Below are positions 13,212 through 13,521 of a stretch of DNA of 13,710 nucleotides, piece by piece. The translations under genes were made by a program, and so were the position numbers. The notes below the pieces were generated by a model that saw nothing but the letters and a program-made list of their open reading frames with translations, did no database searches and was not told the origin of the DNA. Position 1 is the first letter of the stretch; every line of letters begins with the position of its first letter. Source of the DNA: a virus. Its lineage: Duplodnaviria; Heunggongvirae; Uroviricota; Caudoviricetes. Where the stretch lies: IMG/VR virus record IMGVR_UViG_2693429700_000003, positions 1-13,710 of that record. One strand, 5' to 3'.

Positions 13212-13287
13212 GGCCCTTTAGCTCAGTGGTGAGAGCGAGCGACTCATAATCGCCAGGTCGCTGGTTCAAATCCAGCAAGGGCCACCA
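13212..13287 (+). tRNA. tRNA with CAU anticodon, ileX/ileZ-like (tRNA-Ile2 type read after lysidine modification; Met not excluded)
   Basis: Manual cloverleaf: acceptor GGCCCTT/AAGGGCC, D-arm TAGCTCAGTGGTGAGAGC, anticodon loop CTCATAA, T-loop GGTTCAAATCC, 3' ACCA; close to my recollection of E. coli ileX. Confidence 0.8.
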
Positions 13288-13288
13288 A

Positions 13289-13365
13289 CCGCCACTAGCT
13301 CATCAGGAAAGAGCGTCAACCCTTTAAGTTGAGTGTGCGAGGTTCGAGTCCCCGGTGGCGGTCCA
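13289..13365 (+). tRNA. tRNA of uncertain identity: anticodon loop CCUUUAA (UUU at positions 34-36, Lys-like, but with non-canonical C33)
   Basis: Manual cloverleaf: acceptor CCGCCAC/GTGGCGG (perfect 7 bp), D-stem GCTC/GAGC, anticodon stem TCAAC/GTTGA, T-arm with TTCGAGT loop and one mismatch, 3' TCCA; starts 1 nt after the preceding tRNA. Confidence 0.55.
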
Positions 13366-13367
13366 GT

Positions 13368-13443
13368 GCCGACTTAGCTCAGTAGGTAGAGCAACTGACT
13401 TGTAATCAGTAGGTCACCAGTTCGATTCCGGTAGTCGGCACCA
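13368..13443 (+). tRNA. tRNA-Thr (anticodon UGU)
   Basis: Manual cloverleaf: acceptor GCCGACT/AGTCGGC, D-arm TAGCTCAGTAGGTAGAGC, anticodon loop CTTGTAA, T-loop TTCGATT, 3' ACCA. Confidence 0.8.
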
Positions 13444-13446
13444 TAT

Positions 13447-13521
13447 GCGGGCATCGTATAATGGCTATTACCTCAGCCTTCCAAGCTGATGATGCGGGTT
13501 CGATTCCCGCTGCCCGCTCCA
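13447..13521 (+). tRNA. tRNA-Gly (anticodon UCC), glyT-like
   Basis: GCGGGCATCGTATAATGGCTATTACCTCAGCCTTCCAAGCTGATGATGCGGGTTCGATTCCCGCTGCCCGCTCCA; anticodon loop CTTCCAA; matches my recollection of E. coli tRNA-Gly(UCC). Confidence 0.8.

Follow-up and report, generated by a model that had tools for sequence, protein, structure and literature searches.

The uridine at position 33 of the tRNA anticodon loop is nearly invariant and is needed for the architecture of the loop; the exceptions noted by Grosjean and Westhof are eukaryotic initiator tRNAs, which carry C33, and the tRNA-Ser(CAG) of Candida, which carries G33 (PMC5041475). The latter is an anticodon-shifted tRNA that decodes less efficiently and is leucylated less on account of its G33, which may also make it less toxic (PMC5041475, PMC1991585). 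Phage-borne tRNAs are now being reinterpreted as a counter-defence against tRNA-cleaving immunity, beyond their help with codon bias. Here, we describe an array of four tRNA genes (t1 to t4, in order) related to the ileZ-argN-argO clusters of Stx phages. The array lies in a 13,710-nt stretch of Caudoviricetes DNA, positions 1 to 13,710 of the IMG/VR record IMGVR_UViG_2693429700_000003, which we refer to as the window. It combines both candidate kinds of phage tRNA: three that serve rare codons, two of them nuclease-sensitive copies of host genes, and an Arg-derived one, t2, which has acquired the anticodon of the main target of the nucleases PARIS and PrrC and lost U33. The reading that we favour, with a confidence just short of even, is that t2 is what remains of an Arg tRNA with a shifted anticodon, attenuated and tolerated, and that it hitch-hikes with the three useful genes beside it.

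ARAGORN called exactly four tRNA genes, all on the + strand, within 13212-13521. Rfam RF00005 (gathering score, 29 bits) matched all four at E-values of 7.5e-07 to 6e-15, far beyond chance, and the spacers between the genes read A, GT and TAT, that is, 1, 2 and 3 nt. These data bear out an earlier, sequence-only reading of the window, which had described four tightly packed tRNA genes with gaps of 1-3 nt, the first ileX-like with anticodon CAU and the second with a good cloverleaf, a 7-bp acceptor stem and the loop CCUUUAA with C33. Indeed, t1 is identical to ileZ of the Stx2 phage AP012540 and is labelled tRNA-Ile by PGAP in near-identical loci.

Divided by structural segment, t2 reads CCGCCAC TA GCTC ATCAGGAAA GAGC G TCAAC CCTTTAA GTTGA GTGTG CGAGG TTCGAGT CCCCG GTGGCGG T CCA, with a perfect 7-bp acceptor stem (CCGCCAC/GTGGCGG). 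It aligned to the full RF00005 model (positions 1-71) with 44.4 bits against the 29 needed for membership, and has the conserved tertiary features T8, A14, GG in the D loop, the T loop TTCGAGT, A37 and an encoded CCA. It lacks the U33 of canonical elongator tRNAs, having C at 13322. ARAGORN and Infernal agreed on both the fold and the loop register, and no alternative register that restored U33 was found. Registers giving U33 or an ochre-reading UUA anticodon were rejected, as the one-position shift of the stem breaks pairing. For the window allele, neither a canonical loop from a different fold nor a pseudogene call was obtained; PGAP labels it tRNA-Lys. Among 159 distinct ARAGORN tRNAs from 240 related loci (2.03 Mb), a nucleotide other than T33 was limited to t2 alleles and to the short-loop relatives described below.

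The sole stem mismatch of t2 is A51.C63, in the T stem. As a candidate defect, this mismatch was downgraded, since A.C pairs also occur in the T stem of the genuine thrU and in the anticodon stem of t1. The energy of the t2 cloverleaf was -25.5 kcal/mol, compared with -25.5 to -26.4 kcal/mol for Arg relatives. These energies were evaluated directly in place of minimum free energy folding, which was uninformative as a test of tRNA quality, the host-identical copy of thrU also failing to form a cloverleaf.

The relatives of t2 are Arg tRNAs. The t1-t2 segment aligned at 88% to the ileZ-argN segment of Stx phages, and the identity of t2 was 84-88% with the Arg-UCU genes in the same slot of sister lambdoid prophages and 82% with argN; with the host genes argU and lysT, it was 65% and 52%, respectively. 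Sampling of IMG/VR through the phage-specific thrU-glyT junction, which is unbiased towards t2, yielded 114 clusters. Their second slot (slot 2) held t2 in 57 cases, an Arg-UCU gene in 33 and a short-loop form in approximately 9; it was empty in approximately 15. The slot-2 Arg-UCU genes share the anticodon stem of t2 (TCAAC-CTTCTAA-GTTGA). On this comparison, t2 is an Arg-UCU gene with the substitutions U33C and C35U (CUUCUAA to CCUUUAA), and not a Lys tRNA by descent. The earlier suggestion that t2 might be Lys-UUU-like thus applies to its anticodon alone. Its body is of the Arg type, being 88% identical to a same-slot Arg-UCU gene and 52% to lysT, and keeping A20.

The link to the ileZ-argN-argO clusters, a comparison that the sequence-only reading had proposed, is real: t2 belongs to the argN family. 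As in the Stx phages, it follows an identical ileZ in the late region, it has the acceptor end C1-G72/U73 of argN, unusual in both, and its D arm, with A20, and T arm are alike. It differs in its anticodon (UUU rather than UCG or UCU; the loop of argN is CUUCGAA), in C33 instead of U33 and in the A51.C63 mismatch. The clusters differ as well: downstream of t2 lie thrU and glyT, each an exact copy of the host gene, and downstream of argN lie argO and stx. In an alignment of the t2 family, 97.7% of the pair cells were standard, compared with 29-54% in slid controls; five pairs changed on both sides, and none of 500 shuffles reached the covariation score. The compensated pairs that separate t2 from argN (7-66, 27-43 and 30-40) were considered as a sign of selection on t2 and rejected, as they are inherited and common to the Arg-UCU genes.

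The single-step intermediates of the loop change were not recovered. In IMG/VR, neither U33 with UUU nor C33 with UCU occurred in the t2 backbone, the only matches being non-tRNA chance matches. In the metagenome collection, U33 with UUU in this backbone was likewise absent, and the search returned only an unrelated, genuine tRNA-Lys in a foreign array of 11 tRNAs. Among species-representative genomes, t2 occurred in Escherichia coli and Shigella flexneri only; two other hits were chance matches inside coding sequence. A literature search returned no description of the Arg origin of t2 or of its C33, and nothing relevant on ileZ, argN and argO or on lambdoid prophage Ile-Lys-Thr-Gly arrays.

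We next compared t2 with the published identity elements of the two candidate synthetases. In E. coli, the determinants for arginyl-tRNA synthetase (ArgRS) are A20, the main one, C35, U/G36 and A/G73; those for lysyl-tRNA synthetase (LysRS) are the three anticodon bases and A73, any other base at 73 lowering acceptance (PMC9976931). In addition, placing a C31-G39 pair in the tRNA-Lys of E. coli lowered lysine acceptance approximately 100-fold (PMC1483225). The corresponding elements of t2 are A20, U35, U36, C31-G39 and U73. It has the anticodon UUU expected by LysRS but U73 in place of A73 and C31-G39 in place of the A31-U39 of lysT. From the Arg set, it has A20 and U36, and C35 has become U; U73 also occurs in family members with canonical Arg anticodons. 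With lysT it shares the anticodon and U36-A37-A38, a sequence reported to be required for t6A37 (PMC13276492). It differs from lysT, to which it is 52% identical, at 73, at 31-39, at C33 (U33 in lysT) and at C16 and A20 (U16 and U20 in lysT). From its sequence, t2 is an Arg-family member by descent and not by anticodon or identity, and is an identity hybrid, with a Lys anticodon on an Arg body, that neither LysRS nor ArgRS should favour. The caution that the sequence-only reading had expressed over the decoding identity of t2 was justified.

The codon usage of the prophage was evaluated using the late and early genes of the related prophage of E. coli SLK172 against 17.8 thousand host codons. 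The odds ratios in late and early genes, respectively, were 1.8 and 4.0 for AUA, 1.9 and 2.4 for ACA, 1.7 and 1.75 for GGA, and 2.3 and 1.5 for GGG. The largest were those of Arg codons: 3.4 and 6.8 for AGA, 8.5 and 8.1 for AGG, and 4.4 and 3.8 for CGG. For AAA, the ratio was 0.90 in late genes (not significant) and 1.32 in early genes. The sequence-only reading had proposed that such phage tRNA sets usually compensate for the codon bias of late genes. This fits t1, t3 and t4, whose codons AUA, ACA and GGA/GGG were enriched 1.5-4-fold, but not t2 as a Lys tRNA (AAA, 0.90 in late genes). The strongest codon need of the prophage is for a tRNA reading Arg AGA, AGG or CGG, and not for Lys. Thus, the loop mutations moved t2 away from the most-needed codons, since AGA, AGG and CGG were enriched 3.4-8.5-fold and AAA was at 0.90.

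The remaining two genes, t3 and t4, are base-for-base identical to thrU and glyT of E. coli K-12, an identity that the sequence-only reading had missed. In the host, tyrU separates thrU and glyT, and in the phage the copies lie 3 nt apart without tyrU; the phage array is therefore not a simple captured fragment of the host chromosome. That these copies match thrU and glyT exactly in many prophages suggests that they are under strong constraint or undergo gene conversion with the host genes. Because it is identical to host thrU, t3 keeps the target motifs of two nucleases considered below: the AriB motif UAAUC/A with U16 and the P2-OLD CNG motifs.

The distribution of t2 among bacteria was evaluated using complete E. 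coli genomes, 798 of 5,426 of which carried a match. Identity was at least 99% in 279 of these, 95-99% in 474 and 90-95% in 45. In an evenly spaced sample of the hits, PGAP labelled the 100% and 98.7% alleles tRNA-Lys and left the 97.4% and 96.1% alleles unannotated; approximately half of the sampled carriers held damaged alleles without a PGAP call. The 97.4% allele, of the PPompW/STEC type, has a 1-nt deletion in the D stem and a C>T change in the acceptor stem, and the 96.1% allele has C4T, T8C and C11T. Labelling t2 as tRNA-Lys from the anticodon alone, as is done in hundreds of RefSeq genomes, overstates what is known and hides the Arg-type body. The annotation of phage records is not uniform with this: t2 is identical in sequence yet uncalled in the two records of phages 606R7 and 689R5, at 1615-1691 of loci L245 (ON470580) and L246 (ON470583), inconsistent with the PGAP label.

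In 58 IMG/VR clusters, t2 had 11 alleles, including breaks of the D and T stems, compared with 5-7 for its neighbours; one allele has a 7-nt deletion of the 3' side of the anticodon stem. At the two decayed-lineage loci compared, t2 had five changes and the four other tRNA genes compared had one between them. The t2 loop was conserved in 57 of the 58 t2-type clusters. Variation was not concentrated in the loop of these clusters: approximately 1.3 of 14 events were expected there and 1-2 were seen. The population data point to relaxed constraint, although they come from few independent events.

Under the favoured reading, an Arg-UCU gene lying between an ileZ-like gene and thrU acquired U33C and C35U. 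Transcription of t2 very probably takes place together with that of the adjoining genes, in a Q-dependent late operon, and RNase P cleavage at the 1-3-nt spacers probably releases the RNA. With A20 kept, C35 lost and the U-turn nucleotide replaced, the product would be poorly charged and a weak or non-contributing decoder; we judge it to be attenuated because its identity is hybrid and its U-turn nucleotide is replaced. C33 may render the anticodon shift harmless, as G33 does in the Candida tRNA-Ser(CAG). The gene would then be carried, probably without benefit of its own, by linkage to the three useful tRNAs; it is decaying in a large share of carrier genomes. Its Rfam signal, weaker than that of its neighbours (44.4 bits versus 65-74), supports this reading. 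If t2 is non-functional, it provides a clear, datable example of an anticodon shift that was neutralised and then decayed.

The Candida tRNA is a functional analogue in this argument, and a near parallel to an Arg body with a Lys anticodon and C33. It too is an elongator body for one amino acid with the anticodon of another and has lost U33, and its G33 works against the synthetase matching the new anticodon, much as C33 might make the shift in t2 tolerable. By the same analogy, relief from toxicity might be the reason why the intermediate with U33 and UUU is missing. The analogy has bounds: the Candida (CTG-clade) tRNA is eukaryotic, has G33 and not C33, is demonstrably functional and is essential to a reassigned code; the two tRNAs are unrelated in sequence, and the charging and decoding of t2 are predicted.

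Several observations weigh against this interpretation. The intact form of t2 is the commonest slot-2 allele among the thrU-glyT clusters, and it occurs in several mosaic contexts: after a methyltransferase gene, after Q or after a kinase/phosphatase module, and upstream of either thrU-glyT or an argO-like gene. It is present in the deposited genomes of phages 606R7, 689R5 and PhiR47_1. In stability, its cloverleaf equals those of relatives that function, and A51.C63 has its counterpart in thrU. The frequency of mutational events in the 58 clusters, approximately 0.18 per nt compared with 0.10-0.14 for the neighbours, was not clearly higher, and a small number of events at the level of lineages may account for the decayed alleles. 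Finally, t2 lacks the published recognition features of AriB and P2-OLD, which is the expected look of an evasion variant. Judged by its sequence, it should escape both nucleases, and it alters the nucleotide at which PrrC cleaves.

The features in question are as follows. AriB, of the PARIS system, recognises U36-A-A-U39-C40/A41 together with U16; cleavage is lost with U39A and diminished with A41C or U16C, and the tRNAs Lys(UUU) and Thr(UGU) are its two prime targets (PMC12409363). In the thrU tRNA, the paired CNG motifs at which P2-OLD cuts occupy 28-30 and 40-42; phage tRNA-Thr(UGU) species that are resistant rescue (PMC12445682). PrrC cuts tRNA-Lys 3' of U33 (PMC2610378). At 36-41, t2 reads TAAGTT where lysT reads TAATCA, and it has C16 where lysT has U16; at the P2-OLD positions, it has CAA and TTG where thrU has CTG and CAG.

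The main rival reading, conceivable albeit unlikely, is that t2 is a spare, working tRNA-Lys(UUU) that survives when AriB, PrrC or P2-OLD destroys host tRNA-Lys during lytic growth and sustains the decoding of AAA and AAG. Its survival would depend on late synthesis, a foreign anticodon stem and D loop, and a C at the nucleotide cut by PrrC. Indeed, t2 has the marks of an evading tRNA: the anticodon of the targeted host tRNA together with substitutions at the recognition or cleavage site. Its AriB positions are altered (U36-A-A-G39-U40-U41, C16), whereas lysT and thrU have the full motif; its P2-OLD positions are CAA and UUG and not CNG; it has C33 where PrrC cuts 3' of U33 (PMC2610378); and the array holds both prime types of AriB target, Lys(UUU) and Thr(UGU). 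As AAA needs no codon-bias supplement, a phage Lys tRNA suggests another purpose. The loop is kept in 57 of 58 clusters and the allele is found in deposited phage genomes. The features expected to govern charging and decoding point the other way: C31-G39 lowers lysine acceptance approximately 100-fold, U73 replaces the A73 determinant and C33 is expected to weaken decoding. Further, the Thr(UGU) gene of the array is host thrU, fully cleavable by AriB and P2-OLD, which argues that the array was not shaped by these nucleases. An effect of U33C on PrrC was undocumented in the literature searched, the gene has decayed in many lineages, and the conservation of its loop is no more than chance at low divergence (approximately 1.3 of 14 events expected, 1-2 seen).

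The described precedents for this role are the tRNA-Lys(UUU) of T5, which acts against AriB, and the tRNA-Thr(UGU) species of phage 21 and other coliphages, which act against P2-OLD. Like these, t2 is phage-borne, has the anticodon of a nuclease target and has substitutions at positions shown to matter (39-41 and 16 for AriB; the CNG motifs at 28-30 and 40-42 for P2-OLD). The precedents differ in having proven resistance and rescue and in being recognisable isoacceptors, and the excerpts of those reports mention none without U33. By comparison, t2 is Arg-derived and LysRS-disfavouring, its resistance is predicted from sequence only and the Thr(UGU) gene beside it has the sensitive host sequence. 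Should t2 prove functional, nature would offer in it an elongator tRNA that works without the U-turn uridine, and a new route of nuclease evasion, by alloacceptor shift.

The slot-2 family includes forms that are more strongly remodelled than t2. Short-loop relatives, all outside the window, were found at loci L026 (5553-5592, - strand), L098, L111, L154 and L197 and at 39 further IMG/VR loci. They are 73-74 nt long with A73 and loops of 5-6 nt, and have the form CCGCCACTAGCTCATCGGGAAGAGCGGCAAC-[5-6 nt]-GTTGT(A/G)GTACG(A/G)GGTTCGAGGC(C/T)CCGGTGGCGGACCA. The 5-nt loops are TAAAT, TTAAT, ATAAT, ATGAT, GTGAT, TGAAT and TTTAT; the 6-nt loops are CCAGGT, CCAGAT, CATAGT, CACAGT and CTCAGT. ARAGORN reads some of these forms as Phe(aaa/gaa), Leu(taa) or Stop(tta) via a 4-bp stem. 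The combination of a conserved body and a hypervariable loop, as it appears in these sequences, is not that of a decaying pseudogene. Short-loop forms occurred in 5 of the 5,426 E. coli genomes and in none of the phage collection. In four IMG/VR loci, the anticodon arm is gone altogether (CCGCCACTAGCTCATCAGGAAAGAACGTCACCCTGTGCGAGATTCGGAGTCCCCGGTGGCGGTCCA, n = 4), and in other loci the middle section is replaced or expanded, with the acceptor and T arms kept.

Two further proposals draw on these forms. It is improbable, in our view, that t2 is a non-decoding, tRNA-shaped RNA. In one version it would act as processing punctuation, a good RNase P substrate that delimits t1 at its 3' end and t3 on its 5' side; in another it would be a decoy that binds anticodon-arm nucleases without productive cutting. 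Remodelling in the slot-2 family does affect the anticodon arm (t2, the 5-6-nt loops and the arm-less forms) and spares the acceptor, D and T arms, and the 44 loci of the short-loop relatives have 12 different loops on a body that hardly varies. Five short-loop loci are unchanged except at two loop positions, while more than half of the aligned columns of their flanks differ and the neighbouring ileZ-like gene is mutated. This pattern indicates constraint on the body and none on decoding. However, t2 does not have the invariant-body signature, its 11 alleles in 58 clusters including several that are damaging. Approximately 15 of the 114 thrU-glyT clusters have no slot-2 element, so that it is not required for processing; a tRNA-like nuclease decoy was not found in the literature searched; and the short-loop forms, at 5 of 5,426 E. 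coli genomes, may not inform on t2.

The second proposal, to which we give a similarly low probability, is that slot 2 is the site of an Arg scaffold whose anticodon arm is repeatedly remodelled under pressure from anticodon-arm nucleases, with t2 as a nuclease-proof Lys decoder and the short-loop forms as decoys or inhibitors. If this were true, C33 and the foreign stem of t2 would block PrrC, AriB and P2-OLD, and no elongator tRNA of a bacterium or phage would have been shown before t2 to work without U33.

It is very unlikely that t2 is charged with Arg through A20 and its Arg body and, late in infection, causes low-level insertion of Arg at Lys codons, reading AAA and AAG, or AGA with a G.U mismatch in the middle. 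The main determinant for ArgRS, A20, and the compatible U36 are both present (PMC9976931), U73 is common to argN-type members with canonical Arg anticodons, and a toxic mischarging intermediate would explain why the form with U33 and UUU was not seen. Nevertheless, the strong determinant C35 is lost (PMC9976931), and Lys-to-Arg mistranslation has no apparent benefit. That t2 is no tRNA gene at all, a chance cloverleaf or prediction artefact as its lowest Rfam score of the four and its uncalled state in the 606R7 and 689R5 records might suggest, is extremely unlikely and is refuted by its score (44.4 bits, E = 7.5e-07), its full-length homology to a covarying, same-slot tRNA-Arg family (97.7% standard pairs, five double changes), its conserved slot in a tRNA array and its encoded CCA end.

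The window covers the regulatory and nin/late-control segment of a lambdoid E. coli prophage. Its features are listed below.

Coordinates of the tRNA array and of other features in the window (nt; strand)
Feature	Position	Strand	Basis and remarks
DicF small RNA, full-length	1001-1052	-	Rfam, 76.7 bits
sok antitoxin RNA	8336-8509	+	Rfam, 109.5 bits
DUF1133 protein, in the position of the late antiterminator Q	10898-11452	+	Pfam DUF1133, E = 3e-101
DNA methyltransferase, intact 349-aa open reading frame directly upstream of the array	12113-13162	+	Pfam N6_N4_Mtase, E = 7e-45; PGAP in locus L001
t1, tRNA-Ile2-type, anticodon CAU	13212-13287	+	ARAGORN; Rfam RF00005, 72.5 bits; identical to Stx-phage ileZ
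t2, argN/Arg-UCU family, loop CCUUUAA, C31-G39, A20, U73, CCA encoded	13289-13365	+	ARAGORN (anticodon TTT); Rfam RF00005, 44.4 bits
t2 anticodon loop	13321-13327	+	C32, 13321; C33, 13322; U34-U36, 13323-13325; A37-A38, 13326-13327
t3, tRNA-Thr(UGU)	13368-13443	+	ARAGORN; Rfam, 73.8 bits; 100% identical to K-12 thrU
t4, tRNA-Gly(UCC)	13447-13521	+	ARAGORN; Rfam, 64.9 bits; 100% identical to K-12 glyT

The DUF1133 protein also matched Phage_antitermQ weakly (27.6 bits; cutoff, 26), and genes for DUF968/HNH and RusA proteins likewise lie upstream of the array. In the E. coli SLK172 locus, which is 99.5% identical, the array is followed by genes for holin, lysozyme, Rz, terminase and morphogenesis proteins, and the prophage adjoins ompW. 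The order in the related loci L001 and L240 is Q-like gene, methyltransferase, tRNAs, holin, lysozyme and Rz. In the records of phages 606R7, 689R5 and PhiR47_1, an annotated Q lies directly 5' of the same array; in 606R7, a hairpin resembling an intrinsic terminator lies between the two. From this gene order, we infer that the array belongs to a Q-dependent late (lysis) transcription unit. A sigma-70-like match at 13435-13462 (TCGGCA-16 nt-TATAAT, 10/12), reaching from the last part of t3 into the first part of t4, is probably due to chance: the region has two such matches, compared with 2.6 expected from shuffles.

Several minor observations concern the surrounding segments. DicF and sok are both typical of Qin/Rac-like lambdoid prophages; sok is overlapped by an open reading frame at 8449-8655, and hokD is annotated in the related locus L240. 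The methyltransferase gene upstream of the array (L001, 1965-3013) is frameshifted in the E. coli SLK172 annotation and truncated in GTEN_24, where a module of Ser/Thr kinase and PP2C phosphatase precedes it. The segment from Q to the lysis genes is a mosaic cargo site.

Directly 3' of the array, before the position of the holin gene in related loci, the stretch 13522-13660 contains two long inverted repeats, one of 11 bp and one of 14 bp, both perfect, with hairpins at 13528-13573 and 13581-13653. This 139-nt stretch folds at -52 kcal/mol (z = -5.6 versus shuffles); an Rfam search of it returned no match even at E <= 1. It is kept together with the array in E. coli genomes, and an unannotated stretch of phage HK639 is approximately 80% identical to it. 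The hairpin region could be a regulatory or processing element of the late operon.

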